Assembly (NCBI GenBank): GCA_017475605.1
Contig: JAFVFD010000002.1
Span: 199,432-231,431 of the forward strand
Origin: Alphaproteobacteria bacterium
Lineage (GTDB): Bacteria; Pseudomonadota; Alphaproteobacteria; Rs-D84
DNA: 32,000 bases
Reading direction: 5' to 3'
Made by a program: the position numbers and the translations under genes. Below the pieces are notes generated by a model. That model worked only from the letters and a program-made list of their open reading frames with translations. It did not search any database and was not told the DNA's origin. Below are positions 9,701-31,355 of the stretch, piece after piece (the stretch's first letter is position 1; the number at the start of each line of letters is the position of its first letter).

Positions 9701-10217
9701 TGAAACCGTCAAAGAAATGAACAAAAGGCACCCGCGCGCGTAATGTTGCCGCATGGGCAATTGCCGCCAAGTCGTGTGCGGCCTGGACATTATGGGACGA
9801 CAGCATCGCAAACCCCGTCGCACGTACCGACATAACATCACTGTGGTCGCCAAATATTGATAGCGCATGTGTTGCCAGCGCGCGCGCCGCCACGTGCATA
9901 ACAAACGGCGTTTGTTCCCCGGCGATTTTGTACATATTCGGAATCATAAGCAACAATCCCTGGGACGCGGTAAACGTCGTCGCCAATGCGCCCATCTGTA
10001 ATGCGCCATGCATCGCGCCGGCGGCACCACCTTCGGATTGCATTTCAATTATTTGTGGAATTGCCCCCCAGATATTCTTTTTATGCTGAAAAGCCCATTC
10101 ATCCGCCAATTCCCCCATTGTCGAACTGGGGGTGATTGGATAAATTGCCGCAAAATCAACACAACGATACGCGACATCCGCCGCCGCCCAATTTCCATCA
10201 ACAATTAAATTTGCCAT
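6711..10217 (-). CDS. nifJ: pyruvate:ferredoxin (flavodoxin) oxidoreductase, single-polypeptide NifJ/YdbK type
   Basis: 1168 aa. Two ferredoxin-type motifs are present (CIQCGKCSMLCPHAAI and CTGCNVCVKNCPVHAL), plus the TPP-binding GGDGWAYDIGYGG. Length and domain order are typical of homodimeric PFOR. Confidence 0.95.
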   Translation of the reverse strand: MANLIVDGNWAAADVAYRCVDFAAIYPITPSSTMGELADEWAFQHKKNIWGAIPQIIEMQSEGGAAGAMHGALQMGALATTFTASQGLLLMIPNMYKIAGEQTPFVMHVAARALATHALSIFGDHSDVMSVRATGFAMLSSHNVQAAHDLAAIAHAATLRARVPFVHFFDGFRTSHEESRLSRIEDDVLRKLLPDDLVVANRNRGMKPEKPTIRGTAQNPDVYFQSREAANPLYEKTPEIVQSVMDEFASLTGRKYGVVEYVGDKRAKHVIVSMGSSCETIEETMEQLPAGLGLIRVHLFQPFPVDAFLQILPKTVKNIAVLDRTKEPGAIGEPLYTTIKTIVGNGINVFGGRYGLGSKEFKPRDVKAIYENMMRGTLHHNFTVGIDDDLTGLSLKTDPAFAVQNDNFKTAVLYGIGSDGTVGAVKNIVKIVGENSDLYPQSYAVYDSKKSGGLTQSHIRFSDKPIRSQYLVEVADFISISNFMIAQRFDTFRGLRAGGTVMINTGMAPDVAFANLPREAQEQLIRLRANVYFLDANRGAAEFGFGNRINTFIMLNFFRLTNVIDPAIAASAAKVAIEKSYKKKGMDVVAANWAAVDNADKYLVKYDLPSSPSNFAPDWTPAMTADAPSEIAGTLGEIAAGRGDAIPVSRFRVDGEFGAGQYPVGTAKYEKRAIAQNVATVDLEKCIQCGKCSMLCPHAAIRIKALTEDQVADARANGIIVVPMKTPELGPNMYYTLSISPADCTGCNVCVKNCPVHALALKPMADARENQAAFDATVKLPDISRDKLNLNIPKHVELLPHYFEFSGACAGCGETPYVKLLAHLFGNRMVVANATGCSSIYGGNLPTTPWTTDDNGCGPAWSNSLFEDNAEYGLGMRLAINQKRDALKGLLFELNIPDVEKIFAETDVVKQRELKHVVQLHLAGIQDPRARAAESLLDTIVDKSVWIIGGDGWAYDIGYGGVDHILHSGENVNILVLDTEGYSNTGGQQSKSTPFGASMKFAIGGKEHAKKDLGMIAMMSGAYVAQIALGANQAQAIRAFREAESFNGPSIILAYAPCIAHGFALQNGVEHQQMLVNTGAWPLYRFDPRLALSGKSPLAMDSSVDNLMPLEDFLKTESRFGAARAVNPNFDKLVAQAQANNRYKDELKKYIAQFALNANNPVKENGEG

Positions 10218-10241
10218 AATTTCCGTCCCTTTGGGTATATT

Positions 10242-10250
10242 TTTATATCA
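10242..10250 (-). promoter_or_regulatory. extended -10-like element TGATATAAA upstream of PFOR
   Basis: The minus strand reads TTTTTTTGTGATATAAA. AAGGGA RBS and the ATG at 10217 follow. Confidence 0.4.
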
Positions 10251-10291
10251 CAAAAAAACATAGTAAAACCCCAAAATAAAGGCAAGAAATA

Positions 10292-10335
10292 TTCTTGACA
10301 AAATACTTGACAAATAGAGTTTTTTGTATTATCTA
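10292..10335 (+). promoter_or_regulatory. tandem TTGACA element plus -10-like hexamers upstream of the alpha-CTD-repeat gene
   Basis: TTGACA at 10295-10300 and 10307-10312. TATCTA lies 17 nt after the second copy, or TG-TATTAT at 10325-10332. The element is near-identical to 14767-14793. Confidence 0.45.
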
Positions 10336-10385
10336 TTTGTATGGGTCGGGCAGGATGGCCTTAACACAACCAAACGGAGTGAAAA

Positions 10386-12209
10386 ATGAGAAATCCGACA
10401 AGAAAACAACAACGCGCTAAACAAAACGCTATAGAATCCAGAGAAAACGCATTAAAAAACCAATTGAAACTGGACGAAAACGATGCGCAAAAAATAGAAT
10501 ATATTTTAAGTATGTTATTGGATCTTGATGCGAATAAAGCACGTGATATCATCAAAAACACCTCGTTTCGCTATTTGATTCAATCGCGCCAATCGGATAC
10601 TGCAGACAAACAAAATTCTCTTAAATGTCCTTTGGCATTGCATGCCATTGTGGTTGCATTATCAACATCCGGCGAAGATATTAACAATATCTTGAGTGAA
10701 ATGTCAGATTCTGCGATTAATTCATTGAAAGAATCTATCGCCATTGCAAAAACACAACCCTGTCCGGACAAAGCGTCTATCAACAAACTTATTGCTGAGT
10801 ATAAAGAAAAACGAAAAACAAAAAGAACTGACGAATGGCACACAGACAGCAATGGTGACACATATAAAGAATCACGCGCATTAACAAAAAACGAAATGCT
10901 GGATAACGAACGCAAATTAAAATCCGCCACCGTTACAGCAAACGTTATAGACTTATGGGACGATGCAATAGCAGAGTTGGACAAATGGTCTGTTGCCGTT
11001 GATACTTTCAAACGCGATTCACAAACTGTTGAACAGCAACAAATTGGGGCGCGAAAAGACCCATCTGATAATCAGAAACAAGGCCAAACCGTTCCTGATG
11101 AAATATTGTTTATGCGGGTTGGCGAATTTTTGTCTGTTCGTACGGCAAATCGCCTTAAAGAAGCCGGCATTGAATATATATGTGATTTGATTCAATATGG
11201 CAAATCTAACGTTAAAAAAATACACGGATTAGGTCCAAAGGGATATCACGAAATCTTTTCGTACCTGTTGCCGCGACACCTTGGCTTAGGGTCTGATATA
11301 ACGCTGTCTGATGAATCTTTACAGGCGATTAAAAAATTCAAATCTAATCTGGCCAATACCGACAAGTTAGATTTGGATATCCGCGAAACTAATTTGTCAA
11401 AACGTACAAAAAATTGCTTGTTGGGTGCTGGTATTAAGACTATTGGCGAATTAATCAAAAAGACCAAAGAAGAACTGTATAAAATACGTGGCTTTGGTCG
11501 TCGCTCAATGGTTGATATCGAAGACATGTTGAATAAAATGGATTTAAAATTAGCAACGCCGATAACTGCAAAACCAGATTTATCACAAATTCGCATCGCG
11601 GATTTGCGCTTTTTGGGTTGCGCCAAGAATCCTTTGATTGTCGGCGGTATTGATACTGTTGATAAGTTAATCAAAAAGAACAAACAAGAACTGCGTAAAA
11701 TACGTGGTTTGGGTCCCAAAGCGATTCAGAATATTATTTACTCTTTGGAAAAAATGGGTCTAGAATTGGCCAAGCCAACACCTAGAAAAACAAAAACTGT
11801 TAAAAAGCCACAAGTGGTTACTGCCCAACCCAAAACAATGTTAGACGTCAAAGCATTAGAAGCGCAGTTGGCTGCATTGGTTGAATTATATAAAAATGCC
11901 GAAGAAGACATGGCCAATGCCAAAACAAGACGTTTGGCAATCATGATGCAAATTGGCGAACAAAGCGATGATGATAAGAAAATCGAACAACTGTCCGATG
12001 CATTACAAACCGAAAACGCATCTATTAAAGAACATGCTGTTACGATGGAAAATTTGCGTCCTGCAAAAGAATTGTCAGACAAACTAACCGCCGCAAAAAA
12101 TGCTAAAAATGATGCACAAAAAGCATTAGATGCAGCAGAATCAACACTGCAATCTTTAAACACAGAGATAGCAGCATTGTTGGCACAAGCAAAACAAAAT
12201 TCTAAATAA
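10386..12209 (+). CDS. hypothetical protein with three tandem RNA polymerase alpha-subunit C-terminal-domain (alpha-CTD, helix-hairpin-helix)-like repeats and a C-terminal coiled coil
   Basis: GGAG lies 6 nt upstream of the ATG. Repeat cores are LSVRTANRLKEAGIEYICDLIQ...IHGLGPKG, LSKRTKNCLLGAGIKTIGELIK...IRGFGRRS and LGCAKNPLIVGGIDTVDKLIK...IRGLGPKA. From memory these align to E. coli alpha [22 protein letters not shown]...TPNLGKKS. The last ~130 aa are heptad-like and rich in Ala/Lys/Glu/Gln. Confidence 0.8.
   Translation: MRNPTRKQQRAKQNAIESRENALKNQLKLDENDAQKIEYILSMLLDLDANKARDIIKNTSFRYLIQSRQSDTADKQNSLKCPLALHAIVVALSTSGEDINNILSEMSDSAINSLKESIAIAKTQPCPDKASINKLIAEYKEKRKTKRTDEWHTDSNGDTYKESRALTKNEMLDNERKLKSATVTANVIDLWDDAIAELDKWSVAVDTFKRDSQTVEQQQIGARKDPSDNQKQGQTVPDEILFMRVGEFLSVRTANRLKEAGIEYICDLIQYGKSNVKKIHGLGPKGYHEIFSYLLPRHLGLGSDITLSDESLQAIKKFKSNLANTDKLDLDIRETNLSKRTKNCLLGAGIKTIGELIKKTKEELYKIRGFGRRSMVDIEDMLNKMDLKLATPITAKPDLSQIRIADLRFLGCAKNPLIVGGIDTVDKLIKKNKQELRKIRGLGPKAIQNIIYSLEKMGLELAKPTPRKTKTVKKPQVVTAQPKTMLDVKALEAQLAALVELYKNAEEDMANAKTRRLAIMMQIGEQSDDDKKIEQLSDALQTENASIKEHAVTMENLRPAKELSDKLTAAKNAKNDAQKALDAAESTLQSLNTEIAALLAQAKQNSK
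11100..11768 (+). repeat. three alpha-CTD-like coding repeats (about 11100-11291, 11376-11552, 11589-11768)
   Basis: Protein-level repeats as listed for the CDS. Repeats 2 and 3 are also similar at DNA level: 11451-11500 ttaatcaaaaagaccaaagaagaactgtataaaatacgtggctttggt versus 11667-11714 ttaatcaaaaagaacaaacaagaactgcgtaaaatacgtggtttgggt. Confidence 0.8.
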
Positions 12210-12225
12210 AAAAAAGGATACCTTA

Positions 12226-12915
12226 ATGGCGAATTTCGATATTAAACCATCAAAATGGCTGAACGAATCTAAACAAGGCAACTTTGTGTTCGCACCCGTT
12301 GGGAATGTTTGTAATGTCCAGATTTTTGATAAAATCAGCATGGAAAAATGCGCAGAAATGTTGGGCAACCTGGCACAAATAATTGCGCAATTACCCGCAA
12401 AACCAATTTATACAGCATCGGCAAAAATTGTATCACCATACGACATATCGCCAGATATATTCGTTTTTGATGTTATGATTAATTCTAGTGGTGGCGATGT
12501 AAATGTATATAAATCAATTTCGTCATTGTTTGCATTGGCAAAATCACGTGGCGCGATTGTTCGCACCCAGAATATTGGCTCGGCGGCCAGTTGCGCCAGC
12601 ATGCTGGCAATTCAGGGCACCCCGGGTTATCGCGTAATGTATGATACCGCATGTAACTATATCCATTTCGGCAAAACTACATTAACAGTCGAACGCGCAG
12701 ATGAATTTGATATTGCGACCCAAAACTCAAAAATCAATCGCGAACAGGTTCGCAAAGTTTATCAGGCATATACGAAACTGACACCGGACGAGATAAAAAA
12801 ATTCATCACTGTCGAAGGTGCCGGCAACTTATTCGCACGCAAATCCCTTGAAAAAGGTGTATGCGATTGGATTTTGACAATTGACGGCAAACTTATTGGT
12901 CGCAAAGGTCGATAA
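12226..12915 (+). CDS. ClpP-like (S14 family) serine peptidase, divergent orphan copy
   Basis: AAGGA lies 7 nt upstream. INSSGGDVNVYKSI...IGSAASCASMLA...NYIHFG parallels the ClpP motifs INSPGG, GQAASMG (catalytic Ser, here Ser122 at 12589-12591) and VMIHQP (catalytic His, here His147 at 12664-12666). The position of the third triad residue (Asp) is unclear. There is no terminator between this gene and the upstream gene. Confidence 0.75.
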   Translation: MANFDIKPSKWLNESKQGNFVFAPVGNVCNVQIFDKISMEKCAEMLGNLAQIIAQLPAKPIYTASAKIVSPYDISPDIFVFDVMINSSGGDVNVYKSISSLFALAKSRGAIVRTQNIGSAASCASMLAIQGTPGYRVMYDTACNYIHFGKTTLTVERADEFDIATQNSKINREQVRKVYQAYTKLTPDEIKKFITVEGAGNLFARKSLEKGVCDWILTIDGKLIGRKGR

Positions 12916-12924
12916 AGAACTATA

Positions 12925-12957
12925 AAAAATGGGGCGGCTTGTTCGGCCCCATTTTTG
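12925..12957 (+). terminator. intrinsic terminator after the ClpP-like gene
   Basis: Stem ATGGGGC (12929-12935) pairs with GCCCCAT (12946-12952), followed by TTTTTG and preceded by an A-run. Confidence 0.75.
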
Positions 12958-12983
12958 TAAAAAACAAATACAAATTACATTTT

Positions 12984-12995
12984 TTAGTGTATAAT
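12984..12995 (+). promoter_or_regulatory. -10 element GTG-TATAAT for the 561-aa gene
   Basis: A perfect TATAAT at 12990-12995 is preceded by TTAGTG. It resembles the TTTGTGATATAAT motif used elsewhere in the window. Confidence 0.45.
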
Positions 12996-13028
12996 AAACA
13001 TGAAACAAACAACAAAGGCTGCAAGGAA

Positions 13029-14714
13029 ATGCAATTTATAATACCAGGACATTCGGTTTTATTTCGTTATCACAGCCGTGATCATTTTGCTAAGATTTTT
13101 TGGGGCACCGAAGAACCAGAAATTATTGACCAGCCTTATTTTTCAGATATTTCTTCTATTACAACCAATGAAAAATCAAGTTTTTTTGGTCTGCTCAAAC
13201 GCAGAAATACTGCGCTATTTGTTCCATTTAAAAAAACAACTATCTCGGCAGAAAGTACCGGTATACCAAACCTGAATTTTGTTTTCTTTGATGGCGATGT
13301 AACACTTACCAAATCTGTATCTGACCCAAATATGTTACCGTTGGCGGTTGGCGGAACATTCAAGATGTCTGGTTGTCGCGAATTATTTTTAAAACTGGGG
13401 AATAAGCATCACCTGCCCTTTGCCGAAACCATAAACCTTACGAACGCAATAGAAAGTTTGGACGAACTGATTGGTAAATTGCCGGTTGGTTTGAAAAAAT
13501 TGATTGTCCAACAATCTTTGACAAAATCGATAGGCAATGATGCAAAAAAATTAGAATCCGCACGAAAATTTGTCGAATACTACCCAGATGTAAACATTAA
13601 TGATGGTGATTTAGACCCTTTAATTTATAAACCGACTGTTTCTGAAAACATCATTACTGTTGATACTCAAAAATCAGAATACATCCACCAAAGAGAAGAA
13701 ATTGTAATTGCTCAAACCCAATTACCAGAAAATCGCAAAACAATAGGTCAATATGCAAAAAAACTGGCCTTAGACCCAGAAATACCTGTTAACGATGTGA
13801 ACAAATTACGCGATTATATCCGCGCCGTTGCGATTCCTGAACTGATTCTGGACACAAGTGTTCAACACGTTATACGAACAGACGAAGTTCGCATGTTGCT
13901 GGCCGAAGATTATAACGACATCAAAAACATTATTTTGCGCGAAATAAAATTTGTTGAACCCATCGCAACAAACTTAAAAACAGCTACAAATGTTGTACGC
14001 CCAATTGTAAAAATGTTTTATACCATGGGCAAGCCACTTGATGAAATCCAAATACTTGTCAAACAGGCTCTTGATGCACAACCCACCAACAGCCCGACAC
14101 CAACTGCACCCCAACAATTACCAAAAGAAGATAAACCAGCCAATAGCAAACCAGAAAAGCGCATGCTGTGGTTAAATCAGTCAGTTATCGACAGAATAAA
14201 CAGCTGGGCAATTGATGACAAAAACATTGCATTGGAAAGACTTGATTGGTTTTTGAATAATCCTGGTGCTGTCCCTAAGGATACTAACAGATTTGAAATA
14301 GTTGAAGAAATAGCGGAAATAAAGAAACACAGACGCGGTGGGTTACGCCTTTATGCGTCAAGACAGGTTGATCCTGCTTTAATGATATTTGATGCGGGTA
14401 ATAAAGGCGAACAAAAAGATTTGGACCCGCGTAAAATGGCAAAAGATTTCAAACAAAAATATGGTTCCGCCAGAACGGTTTCCGATCAACTGGCAAATGC
14501 AGCACCCGGTGCCGAAACCGTCCAAATACAATGCACATCTTATATTTCTGGCAAAACAATAAAATTTTTCGAAACATTTTATAATTTTGACACCGATACG
14601 GTCCGTCAAAAACTGGGGATAAAAACCGACACCAAACCCCAACCAGAACAGAAGAAACCTGACAACAACATGTTGGCAAAAGTTTGGTCTGGACGCGGTT
14701 CAAACGGAAATTAA
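13029..14714 (+). CDS. large hypothetical protein (561 aa) with a Pro/Thr/Gln-rich linker and a C-terminal RelE/ParE-superfamily (HigB / addiction-module-killer-like) domain
   Basis: The ORF-track start at 12939 is a TTG inside the upstream terminator, so I use the ATG at 13029 (AAAGG lies 10 nt upstream). The linker is AQPTNSPTPTAPQQLPKEDKPANSKPE. Downstream of it come WFLNNPGA, AEIKKHRRGGLRLYA and LMIFDAGNKGEQKDLD. These match my memory of the killer-protein pattern LGNPGD, SELRIDYGPGYRVYF and ILLCGGDKSTQDKDI. Confidence 0.7.
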   Translation: MQFIIPGHSVLFRYHSRDHFAKIFWGTEEPEIIDQPYFSDISSITTNEKSSFFGLLKRRNTALFVPFKKTTISAESTGIPNLNFVFFDGDVTLTKSVSDPNMLPLAVGGTFKMSGCRELFLKLGNKHHLPFAETINLTNAIESLDELIGKLPVGLKKLIVQQSLTKSIGNDAKKLESARKFVEYYPDVNINDGDLDPLIYKPTVSENIITVDTQKSEYIHQREEIVIAQTQLPENRKTIGQYAKKLALDPEIPVNDVNKLRDYIRAVAIPELILDTSVQHVIRTDEVRMLLAEDYNDIKNIILREIKFVEPIATNLKTATNVVRPIVKMFYTMGKPLDEIQILVKQALDAQPTNSPTPTAPQQLPKEDKPANSKPEKRMLWLNQSVIDRINSWAIDDKNIALERLDWFLNNPGAVPKDTNRFEIVEEIAEIKKHRRGGLRLYASRQVDPALMIFDAGNKGEQKDLDPRKMAKDFKQKYGSARTVSDQLANAAPGAETVQIQCTSYISGKTIKFFETFYNFDTDTVRQKLGIKTDTKPQPEQKKPDNNMLAKVWSGRGSNGN

Positions 14715-14717
14715 ATA

Positions 14718-14741
14718 AACGGGGCAAAAGCTCCGTTTTTT
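14718..14741 (+). terminator. intrinsic terminator after the 561-aa gene
   Basis: AACGGGG (14718-14724), loop CAAAAG, CTCCGTT (14731-14737), then TTTTTT. Confidence 0.7.
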
Positions 14742-14766
14742 ATTTACCTGGCGCAAATCGTCAAAA

Positions 14767-29275: not shown

Positions 29276-29300
29276 AAATGGGGCGATTGCCCCATTTTTA
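29274..29300. terminator. bidirectional intrinsic terminator between the msbA unit and convergent clpB
   Basis: AAAAATGGGGC, loop GATT, GCCCCATTTTT. Confidence 0.85.
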
Positions 29301-31355
29301 TTTGACTGTTAGTTCTTTGCCATGGGTGTCAACAACGACGGTTCCGCCATCGCCCACTGCGCCCGACAAAATTAAATCAGCGATTTTATCTTCAACCGCG
29401 GACGTAATAAGCCGTTTCAATGGTCGCGCACCGAATACAGAATCGTATCCATTGTCCGCCAACCAATTGATTGCCTTGTCCGTAATATCCAACGATATGC
29501 GACGTTCCGCCAGGCGTTTTTCAAGGTTTCTAATCTGAATCTTGACAATGCCCGCCATCACATCACGCCCCAGCGCATTAAAGAACACAATTTCATCAAT
29601 ACGATTTATGAATTCAGGACGGAATTGTTTGCGCACCGCATCCATATCCGGCAAATTACTTGTCATAATGATAATTGTGTTTGTAAAGTTCACAACATGC
29701 CCCTGGCCGTCAGTTAAACGCCCATCGTCCAATATTTGTAAAAATACATTGAACACATCTGGATGTGCCTTTTCGATTTCATCGAACAGCAATACCTGAT
29801 ATGGACGGCGACGTACACTTTCGGTCAAAACACCGCCGGCATCATAGCCCACATACCCCGGGGGCGCACCGATTAAACGCGCGACCGAATGCGGTTCCAT
29901 AAATTCACTCATATCAATTCGGGTCATCGCAGTGTCGTCGTTGAACAAATATTCTGCCAAAGCCTTGGCGACTTCGGTTTTACCAACCCCGGTCGGCCCC
30001 AGGAACATAAACGAACCCATTGGACGATGCGGGTCGGACAACCCGGCACGCGACCGGCGAATTGCGCGTGCAACGATTGACAGCGCGTTATCCTGTCCCA
30101 CGACACGTTTGCGCAACTCGTCTTCGATGTTTAATAGTTTAGATTGTTCTTCGACACTTAATCTGTCGGCGGGAACACCGGTCCATTTACTTACCACCGC
30201 GGCGATATGTTCCGGCAAAACGGTCTTGTATTCCTTGGATTCGGCATTCATTTTCTTTATTTTTTCTTCCAGTTCTGGAATCTTGCCGTATTGTAACGCA
30301 GATGCCTTTTCATAATCGCCCGAACGCATAGCGGCGGCAACTTCGGCCTTGGCGGTATCCAGTGCCGCCATCGCATCGGAAAGCCCATGCATTTTTTCCT
30401 GTTCGGCACGCCACGCGGCCGTCATTTTTTCAGATTCCGCGGTCGCATCTGCGATTAACTTTTCCAAATCAACCAAACGTTTTTTAGATTCTTCATCTTT
30501 TTCCTTTTTCAATGCCTGACGTTCTATCTTTAATTGGGCAAGACGATGGTCAACCTCGTCAAGTGCATCTGGCTTTGAAGAAACCTCGATACGAACGCGG
30601 GCGGCGGCTTCATCCATCAAATCAATTGCCTTGTCTGGCAGGAAACGGTCGGTAATATACCGATTCGATAATTTAACGGCCGCAACCAGCGCGCTGTCTG
30701 CGATACGAACACCATGGTGCCCTTCGTATTTTTCTTTTAACCCACGCAAAATTGAAATAGTGTCTTCAACGGTCGGTTCTTCGATATAAACCGGTTGAAA
30801 ACGACGCGCCAACGCGGGATCTTTTTCAATATATTGACGATACTCGTCCAATGTCGTCGCCCCAAGGCAGTGTAATTCACCACGCGCCAACATCGGTTTA
30901 AGCAGGTTTCCAGCATCCATAGAACCTTCGCCCTTGCCGGCACCGACCAACGTGTGTAATTCATCAATAAACAATATGATTTGACCGTTGGAATCTTTGA
31001 CCGCCTTTAAAATCGCTTTAAGGCGCGCTTCAAACTGGCCACGAAACATTGCGCCCGCCATCATTGCACCCAAATCCAGCGACAATAACTTTTTATTTTG
31101 CAGGTTTTCCGGTATATCGCGCGAAATAATGCGTTCCGCCAAACCTTCTATTATTGCGGTTTTACCAACGCCCGGATTCCCAATTAAAACCGGATTGTTT
31201 TTAGTACGACGCGACAACACCTGGATAGTACGACGAATTTCATCATCGCGCCCGATAACCGGGTCCAACTTGCCATCCGCCGCCAATTTTGTAAAATCGG
31301 TCGTATATTTTTCGATTGCCTGTTGCGGTGTTTCATTCATTTCTTCTGGATTCAT
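29298..31355 (-). CDS. clpB: ClpB-type AAA+ disaggregase lacking the N-terminal (Clp_N) domain
   Basis: 685 aa. NBD1 has [10 protein letters not shown] and LFIDELHT. A coiled-coil middle domain is present ([20 protein letters not shown]...). NBD2 has GPTGVGKTE and [10 protein letters not shown]. The protein starts ~20 aa before NBD1, and only ~170 bp of non-coding DNA lie upstream. Confidence 0.93.

Follow-up and report, generated by a model that had tools for sequence, protein, structure and literature searches.

Domain architecture of the 607-residue protein

The window analyzed here is a 32,000-nucleotide (nt) stretch of contig JAFVFD010000002.1 (positions 199,432 to 231,431; assembly GCA_017475605.1) from an uncultured alphaproteobacterium. 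In this window, an open reading frame (ORF) of 607 amino acids (aa) on the forward strand (10386-12209) encodes a protein with three tandem repeats that resemble the C-terminal domain of the RNA polymerase (RNAP) alpha subunit RpoA (alpha-CTD); the repeats, at 11100-11768 (aa 239-461), are the feature under study. The protein exactly matches MBR2286027.1, which is annotated as "hypothetical protein IJ866_01025" from an uncultured Alphaproteobacteria metagenome-assembled genome (MAG), and the neighboring Rho, CarD, PFOR, and RNase III genes trace to the same MAG. Three things are new here: a cassette is swapped between orthologs of a single gene, this gene occupies a hypervariable, mosaic slot between the genes for PFOR and a ClpP-like protease, and the alpha-CTD allele was recently transferred between lineages.

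The protein can be divided into six segments, all encoded on the forward strand. The family-defining N-terminal domain (N-domain; 10386-11090; aa 1-235) has homology to 16 proteins that lack an alpha-CTD. It is followed by repeat 1 (R1; 11091-11300; aa 236-305), with the motifs VRTANRL (aa 251-257) and GLGPKG (aa 281-286); repeat 2 (R2; 11352-11561; aa 323-392), which is the most RpoA-like and carries KRTKNCL (aa 339-345) and GFGRRS (aa 369-374); and repeat 3 (R3; 11571-11780; aa 396-465), with GCAKNPL (aa 411-417) and GLGPKA (aa 441-446). A basic linker or tail (11781-11846; aa 466-487), which is disordered in the AlphaFold2 (AF2) model, leads into a C-terminal helical, coiled-coil-like region (11847-12209; aa 488-607) with three long helices, as delineated by the AF2 model, alignments, and local BLAST. 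The net charges of R2 (+4), R3 (+7), and the tail (+5) are basic, and the helical C-terminal region is acidic.

The profile PF03118 (RNA_pol_A_CTD) matched the whole protein in three stretches (E = 1e-35). When the repeats were scanned separately, R1 (39.1 bits, E = 6e-10), R2 (66.6 bits, E = 1.6e-18), and R3 (31.7 bits, E = 1.3e-7) all scored above the gathering cutoff of 23.8 bits. Furthermore, all 44 sequence matches of the protein in PDB were RpoA alpha-CTDs, to which R2 was the best match among the repeats; identity of the three repeats to the alpha-CTDs of Escherichia coli and Bacillus subtilis is 29-43%. Judging from its domain content, the protein is not RpoA. The RpoA N-terminal dimerization and insert domains (RNA_pol_L and RNA_pol_A_bac) were not found in it by Pfam, TIGR02027 scored 121 bits versus a cutoff of 227.8 bits and was matched only at profile positions 201-296, and the NCBIfam rpoA models were matched only over their C-terminal 100 positions, with scores far under their cutoffs. 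A sequence-only reading of this DNA had described three tandem alpha-CTD-like domains in a non-RpoA protein, with the motifs listed above aligned to the E. coli protein; both parts of that description are confirmed, and the alignment was correct.

In RpoA, the 265 determinant consists of DNA-contact residues, and the 261 determinant (D258/D259/E261) makes contact with region 4 of sigma-70. We compared the former at the positions equivalent to R265, N268, C269, G296, K298, and S299 of the E. coli protein. R2 (R340/N343/C344/G371/R373/S374; RNCGRS) retains five of these six residues and has Arg in place of K298. R1 (R252/N255/R256/G283/K285/G286; RNRGKG) retains four, and R3 (C412/N415/P416/G443/K445/A446; CNPGKA) retains three, with the Arg265 equivalent replaced by Cys. 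The proposal that two repeats keep their DNA-contact residues is upheld for R2 and to a large extent for R1. The 261 determinant was kept in none of the three repeats, in which positions 258-261 read GEF- (R1), RETN (R2), and ADLR (R3).

The AF2 model of the protein was built from a shallow alignment and has a predicted local distance difference test (pLDDT) score of 69, with R2 and R3 at about 78, and a predicted template modeling (pTM) score of 0.32. The order of helices is identical in R1, R2, and R3. In a Foldseek comparison, the model was superposed on the isolated alpha-CTD chain 1z3e_B with a template modeling (TM) score of 0.91 and a root-mean-square deviation of 0.7 Å (63 columns, 41% identity), and on 1lb2_E with a TM score of 0.87. 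Foldseek gives one local match per target, so the expected alpha-CTD fold is supported for at least one repeat.

The DNA encoding R2 and R3 contains a 91-nt direct repeat (11409-11499 versus 11625-11715) with 75% identity, which indicates a tandem duplication. Within R2, a patch at 11400-11499 is only 86% identical in DNA to the related locus L001; the rest of the tract around it shows 94-100% identity. At the protein level, this patch reads GAGIKTIGELIKK in the window and GSGIDTVKKLIKK in L001. The resemblance of the L001 version to R3 suggests that gene conversion has taken place between repeats.

Among metagenomic proteins, it is common for alpha-CTDs to be arrayed in tandem outside RpoA. 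An exhaustive HMMER search with the 607-aa protein over 1.84 billion cluster representatives yielded 3793 matches at E<=1e-3 and 216 at E<=1e-10, and 135 of the 150 best matches have at least two (2-13) alpha-CTD-like domains. The array by itself is therefore not exceptional, and the rarity implied by the sequence-only reading is not upheld. In a Pfam scan of 40 array proteins, 15 contain sigma-70 region 4, three contain TPR repeats, and two are genuine RpoA proteins in which the CTD is duplicated, as indicated by the presence of RpoA N-terminal domains. Some proteins of RpoA length (P0087, P0136, P0149, P0188, P0206, and others) end in two alpha-CTDs. Of 470 array-type domains from other proteins, 69% have the equivalent of R265, 62% that of N268, and 78% that of G296. 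These array proteins are almost all unnamed, with one labeled "helix-hairpin-helix domain-containing protein" by NCBI, and a literature search for alpha-CTD-like arrays found no relevant or experimental study.

A hypervariable slot with an exchanged cassette

The framework around the repeats is far more restricted. The N-domain and coiled coil were found in none of the 40 array proteins scanned and occur only in a small family, which is unnamed and restricted to one clade of uncultured Alphaproteobacteria. The HMMER search described above recovered 16 members of this family (390-490 aa) without an alpha-CTD, whose matches cover the N-terminal 210 and C-terminal 140 residues of the query. The phmmer E-values to these members range from 1e-13 to 1e-30, each with two matching stretches, one at either terminus. 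Between the two stretches, they carry a 60-80-aa module with the pattern LWTxxQLAxxL...WF...FxxxxFEEYK. Profile matches to this module were weak and all of the helix-turn-helix (HTH) type, namely, HTH_17 (E = 0.006) and the HTH parts of MarR, Xre, and WhiA (E = 0.1-1.4). One HTH-type member, P0069, sits at the same PFOR / gene / ClpP-like / CtpB position as the gene in the window. Orthologs at one locus thus have an HTH-like module exactly where the 607-aa protein has its repeats, which makes the repeats a replaceable cassette. Other members combine the pieces differently: P0067 has one alpha-CTD flanked by two HTH-like modules, such that both kinds of module occur in one protein; P0003 has the N-domain followed by two alpha-CTDs; and P0004 has an unrelated N-terminus of 460 aa followed by R2, R3, and the coiled coil.

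In the N-domain of this family, D33, C81, and H86 are invariant, and a C-x4-HA motif and W191 are conserved. The AF2 model of this domain (pLDDT 81.7, pTM 0.69) is helical with one beta-hairpin (aa 147-165). We found no significant structural neighbor of aa 1-235 in PDB or BFVD and no matching family in Pfam or PHROG. The C-terminal helical region is the constant piece common to all alleles of the family; its start is marked by KT(M/L)LD(V/L)KALE (aa 482-492) and its end by QN(S/T)K. When divergent alleles are compared, R2 is conserved better than any other segment, with 70% identity to P0003 and 66% to P0004, compared with 37 and 19% in the N-domain and 26 and 31% in the coiled coil, respectively.

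The genomic position is shared among relatives. The order PFOR (reverse strand), slot gene (forward), and a ClpP-like gene of 226-229 aa (forward) was found for the gene in the window, P0001, P0003, P0069, and a 439-aa relative, usually with CtpB (reverse) next. The arrangement was seen in the window, L001/L002/L003, L004, L006/L007/L008, and L016. In more distant relatives (L010, L011, L013, and L014), the ClpP-like gene directly follows PFOR and no slot gene is present. The promoter core of the slot gene, AAGGCAAG ... TTGACAAA ... TTTTTGTaTTAT, can be aligned to sequence that precedes the ClpP-like gene in these slot-less loci. Together, these observations indicate that the slot gene is an insertion in a hypervariable slot, and that it came to lie between the ClpP-like ORF and a promoter that was already there. 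Occupants in other lineages are very different, and the alleles are mosaics of shuffled modules. For example, a 1088-aa mosaic in L017 shares separate modules with the 591-aa ORF downstream in the window, a 271-aa gene in L005, the N-terminus of P0004, the HTH-like module, and the coiled coil. No convincing flanking direct or inverted repeats, as expected at mobile-element ends, were found around the slot gene.

The alpha-CTD allele was recently transferred between lineages. Amino acid identity of the window to L001, L004, and L006 is 93, 89, and 90% for PFOR; 95, 46, and 40% for the slot protein; and 69, 62, and 63% for the ClpP-like protein. The number of synonymous substitutions per synonymous site (dS; Nei-Gojobori) that separates the window from L001 is 0.049 in the slot gene; in PFOR, CarD, and the ClpP-like gene, it is 1.03, 0.59, and 1.04, respectively. 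Correspondingly, DNA identity to L001 is 80-88% in PFOR, rises to 96-100% at approximately 10000-12210, and falls again through the ClpP-like gene. The low dS and high identity of the slot gene, set against its diverged flanks, point to a recent move of the allele by recombination. An assembly chimera was ruled out as the cause, since L001 and L002 derive from separate samples and assemblies and are 100% identical across the region and its junctions.

The putative promoter region (10294-10335, forward strand), assigned by consensus only, comprises a -35 element TTGACA (10307-10312), a 17-nt spacer, and a -10-like element TATCTA (10330-10335). It is followed by a ribosome-binding site read from the sequence as GGAG (10376-10379, forward). 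A direct repeat, CTTGACAAA-N3-CTTGACAAA, at 10294-10302 and 10306-10314 overlaps the -35 element. The promoter region is conserved in four loci carrying the slot gene. The upstream copy of CTTGACAAA is present in all four slot-gene loci examined, with one mismatch in L004 and L006, and was not found in two slot-less loci (L011 and L013). This direct repeat could be an operator.

Scans of GTDB genomes found no relatives, a metagenome scan matched only the L002 contig, and no relatives were found on viral contigs. Eleven tblastn matches in phage records are single stretches of alpha-CTD length covering 10-18% of the query with less than 45% identity, the records themselves not having been inspected, and PHROG gave no matches other than ClpP-type proteases. 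A phage or prophage origin (prohead protease plus scaffold) was rejected on these results, on the lack of a significant BFVD neighbor of the N-domain, and on the conserved core-genome position in relatives.

The ClpP-like gene and other neighbors

The ClpP-like gene (12226-12915, forward; 229 aa) begins 16 nt downstream of the slot gene and encodes a divergent ClpP-family serine protease (PF00574, E = 3.5e-12); the match clears the cutoff by a wide margin, yet it is low by the standard of a housekeeping ClpP. Its Ser122 and His147 are invariant in four orthologs, and the position of the catalytic Asp is occupied by Ala or Ser. This gene is the ancestral occupant of the locus and probably shares an operon with the slot gene. 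Its dN/dS ratio is 0.22, versus 0.04 for PFOR and CarD, and its 3' half has 50-70% DNA identity with L001, under the 80-88% baseline of the flanks. The gene may be under diversifying pressure or recombinant.

A variable third gene follows (12939-14714, forward), which encodes 591 aa with TTG as the start codon or 561 aa with the ATG at 13029. Its product has no family or PDB match and was not found in the related loci examined. Residues 108-220 show 31% identity over 134 aa to the 1088-aa slot allele of L017, which places this ORF in the same pool of shuffled modules; residues ~480-540 may be RelE/Gp49-like, judging by eye. Directly after this gene, a consensus scan found a terminator-like hairpin with a T run (14717-14738, forward), the probable end of the operon. 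The 16-nt gap and this hairpin make co-transcription probable.

Further to the right lies a 302-aa ORF (14770-15678, forward) with an Arg-rich N-terminus, one hydrophobic segment, a repetitive C-terminus, a weak match to WisP CCD (E = 0.0013), and its own promoter-like site (14783-14810). A 301-aa antisense ORF (14700-15605, reverse) overlaps it almost fully and is probably spurious. Synteny breaks to the right of 12915: in the relatives (L001, L004, and L006), the next genes are CtpB, Fic, APH, and M23, and in the window, the 591-aa and 302-aa ORFs are followed by a 69-aa membrane ORF, a SecG-like ORF (16054-16392, reverse), and RNase III. The slot thus coincides with a rearrangement breakpoint in the window genome. 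The GC content is 0.37-0.41 over 10001-16000, which covers the slot gene, the ClpP-like gene, and the 591-aa and 302-aa ORFs, compared with 0.45-0.49 in the flanks. A foreign island as the cause of this dip is unsupported, since the slot and ClpP-like genes are syntenic in relatives; only the two right-hand genes (591 and 302 aa) are specific to the window genome.

Two further observations concern protease-related neighbors. In L004, an extra 264-aa gene (L004 12174-12968) follows the ClpP-like gene. Its product has a helical C-terminus ending in QKNRSHIK and, by eye, a "WF..RYF..HFDEL" HTH-like module akin to that of the slot family; if genuine, this module would place the module set of the slot downstream of the protease as well. 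In the window, a ClpA/ClpB-type double-AAA+ protein of 685 aa (AAA_2 and ClpB_D2-small; 29298-31355, reverse) is encoded 17 kb away.

Possible functions and implications

In our favored interpretation, to which we assign a probability of roughly 0.5, the 607-aa protein is an oligomeric, multivalent DNA-binding protein in which the alpha-CTD modules are a swapped-in cassette. It would be a cytoplasmic protein of three parts, in which a cassette that binds DNA lies between the helical N-terminal domain and the coiled coil at the C-terminus. The cassette would be one HTH-like module in most relatives and three alpha-CTD-type domains of the (helix-hairpin-helix)2 fold in the lineage of the window. 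R2, and probably R1, would grip DNA as the alpha-CTD of RpoA does, via Arg/Asn and the Gly-Lys/Arg-Ser loops, and R3 would add mostly charge. Oligomers formed through the coiled coil would display at least six alpha-CTD modules and might bind with high avidity and low specificity, possibly with a preference for the minor groove of AT-rich DNA. Such a layout would suit a protein that associates with the nucleoid, acts like a silencer, or regulates its own operon. Given the fast turnover of the slot, a role in conflict or in a particular niche seems more likely than a housekeeping one. The sequence-only reading had offered multivalent DNA binding and a decoy or sensor function side by side. The former is the better-supported half, given the residues retained, the basic charge, the helical C-terminus of about 120 aa, and the swap with an HTH-like module, and it can be regarded as partly supported. 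Signs of constraint on the repeats also speak for it, namely, the conservation of R2 among divergent alleles, a dN/dS ratio of about 0.3 for R2, R3, and the coiled coil, and the frequent retention of R265, N268, and G296 across array-type domains.

Several points weigh against this interpretation. DNA binding is a prediction from residues, charge, and module replacement, and the HTH label of the alternative module comes from matches below significance. The coiled coil and the oligomeric state are taken from the shallow-alignment model with its low pLDDT and pTM. The N-domain shows no recognizable fold or family. The Arg is missing from R3, and R1 has neither Cys nor Ser at the equivalent positions, so there may be only one competent minor-groove reader. 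The CTTGACAAA repeat is conserved across alleles with differing cassettes, which argues against the cassette reading that site. Lastly, the dN/dS values given above for parts of the slot gene are based on few substitutions (18 synonymous and 34 non-synonymous).

Comparisons with known systems place the protein more precisely. Its repeats share fold and sequence family with the alpha-CTD of RpoA (PF03118), R2 keeping R265, N268, C269, G296, and S299 and R1 most of these. The protein differs from RpoA in having three tandem copies, no 261 determinant, and an unrelated N-domain and coiled coil around the copies; without an alpha N-terminal domain, it cannot assemble into RNAP. The uncharacterized alpha-CTD array proteins likewise have tandem domains outside RpoA with DNA-contact residues mostly kept, but their frame differs. 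The repeats also match the profiles of the BREX protein PglW in PADLOC (positions 795-866, E = 1.7e-9) and NCBIfam (positions 788-864, E = 2.8e-9), which makes PglW a known non-RpoA protein with this domain. However, the 607-aa protein scores only 35 bits versus the 990-bit PglW cutoff, matches in the helix-hairpin-helix region only, and lacks a kinase domain. No BREX genes were found nearby, the neighbors being PFOR, the ClpP-like gene, and unknowns. A known defense system is likewise unsupported, since PADLOC gave only this stretch of PglW across the four genes.

More distant analogies concern the layout. The H-NS, MvaT, Lsr2, and MucR silencers combine an oligomerization helix or coiled coil with an Arg-bearing domain that reads the minor groove of AT-rich DNA, and they are often exchanged horizontally. 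The 607-aa protein may resemble them by analogy of layout; it has no sequence or fold relation to them, its domain order is reversed, and it has three predicted DNA-binding modules per chain. KfrA of RK2 has a DNA-binding head and a long coiled coil, and it is a self-regulating protein encoded by the first gene of its operon. In type I restriction-modification systems, the variable DNA-recognition modules of HsdS are shuffled by recombination on a conserved coiled-coil frame. Both are analogies only; no KfrA or HsdS family was among the Pfam, NCBIfam, or PHROG matches, and no partition, methylase, or restriction genes were found near the 607-aa gene.

Other functions can be weighed against the same evidence. 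A partnership with the ClpP-like protease, in which the slot protein serves as a DNA-tethering adaptor, substrate, or regulator and the coiled coil or QN(S/T)K tail as docking site or degron, would fit the short gap and the common promoter and terminator, which suggest co-transcription. It would also fit the gene order (the slot gene immediately precedes the ClpP-like gene in the window, L001, L004, L006, L016, and L017), the constancy of the C-terminal region among mosaic alleles, and the conserved catalytic Ser and His. Nevertheless, the ClpP-like gene occurs without the slot gene and predates the insertion, such that the adjacency arose by insertion behind its promoter; P0004 has no adjoining ClpP-like gene; and slot proteins with 95% identity are paired with ClpP-like proteins with only 69% identity, which gives no sign of co-evolution. 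We therefore consider this partnership, which the sequence-only reading had implied, doubtful. The protein may instead compete with RNAP at UP elements, blocking or replacing the genuine alpha-CTD as a global modulator, which would be a special case of DNA binding. R2 keeps the residues that contact UP elements, solved complexes show the alpha-CTD on AT-rich DNA (titles of 9zum, 1lb2, and 3n97), and sigma-70 region 4, the reader of the promoter -35 element, is present in 15 of the 40 other array proteins. The 607-aa protein itself lacks sigma region 4, however, and its HTH-like orthologs would not target UP elements, which makes this role rather improbable.

A decoy or sensor would mimic the alpha-CTD and catch phage or mobile-element factors that bind or modify it, for example, by ADP-ribosylation at the Arg265 equivalent. 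That residue is present in R1 and R2, the fast, mosaic, and recently exchanged locus fits an arms race, and PglW provides a precedent for an alpha-CTD-like region in a BREX protein. What weakens the idea is that orthologs carry an HTH-like module instead, such that the conserved need is not alpha-CTD mimicry. In addition, the 261 determinant is lost in all repeats, R3 has no Arg, the identity to the E. coli and B. subtilis alpha-CTDs is only 29-43%, and PADLOC found nothing for the four genes beyond the PglW stretch; we regard a decoy as unlikely. A further proposal is similarly improbable, in which the slot is a modular, horizontally exchanged conflict system. Variable cassettes, including mimics of RNAP alpha, would recognize invading DNA or RNAP-targeting factors from a constant coiled coil and act via a constant ClpP-family protease, and alpha-CTD arrays, often with sigma region 4, would be unrecognized promoter-mimicking or promoter-occupying regulators. 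Lastly, a secreted, nucleomodulin-like effector acting in the nucleus of a eukaryotic host is purely speculative and very improbable. The family is hypervariable, mosaic, equipped with coiled coils, and confined to one clade of uncultured Alphaproteobacteria, and the sequence has Lys/Arg-rich stretches at aa 149-156 and 466-476, but the window showed neither a signal peptide nor genes for a secretion system, and no domain of eukaryotic type was detected in it.

If the favored interpretation as a multivalent DNA-binding protein is true, the alpha-CTD would be a portable DNA-binding module that is swapped like an HTH and is not private to RNAP. The finding would also draw attention to a large and apparently unstudied class of alpha-CTD-array proteins, many of which are fused to sigma-70 region 4; both these fusions and the RpoA proteins with a double CTD look worth a separate survey. 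Orthologs at the same locus that differ only in their cassette provide a natural experiment on what alpha-CTD modules recognize outside RNAP. Within its uncultured clade of Alphaproteobacteria, the slot gene stands out as one under unusual selection, as marked by the recent transfer of this allele and the hypervariability of the slot.

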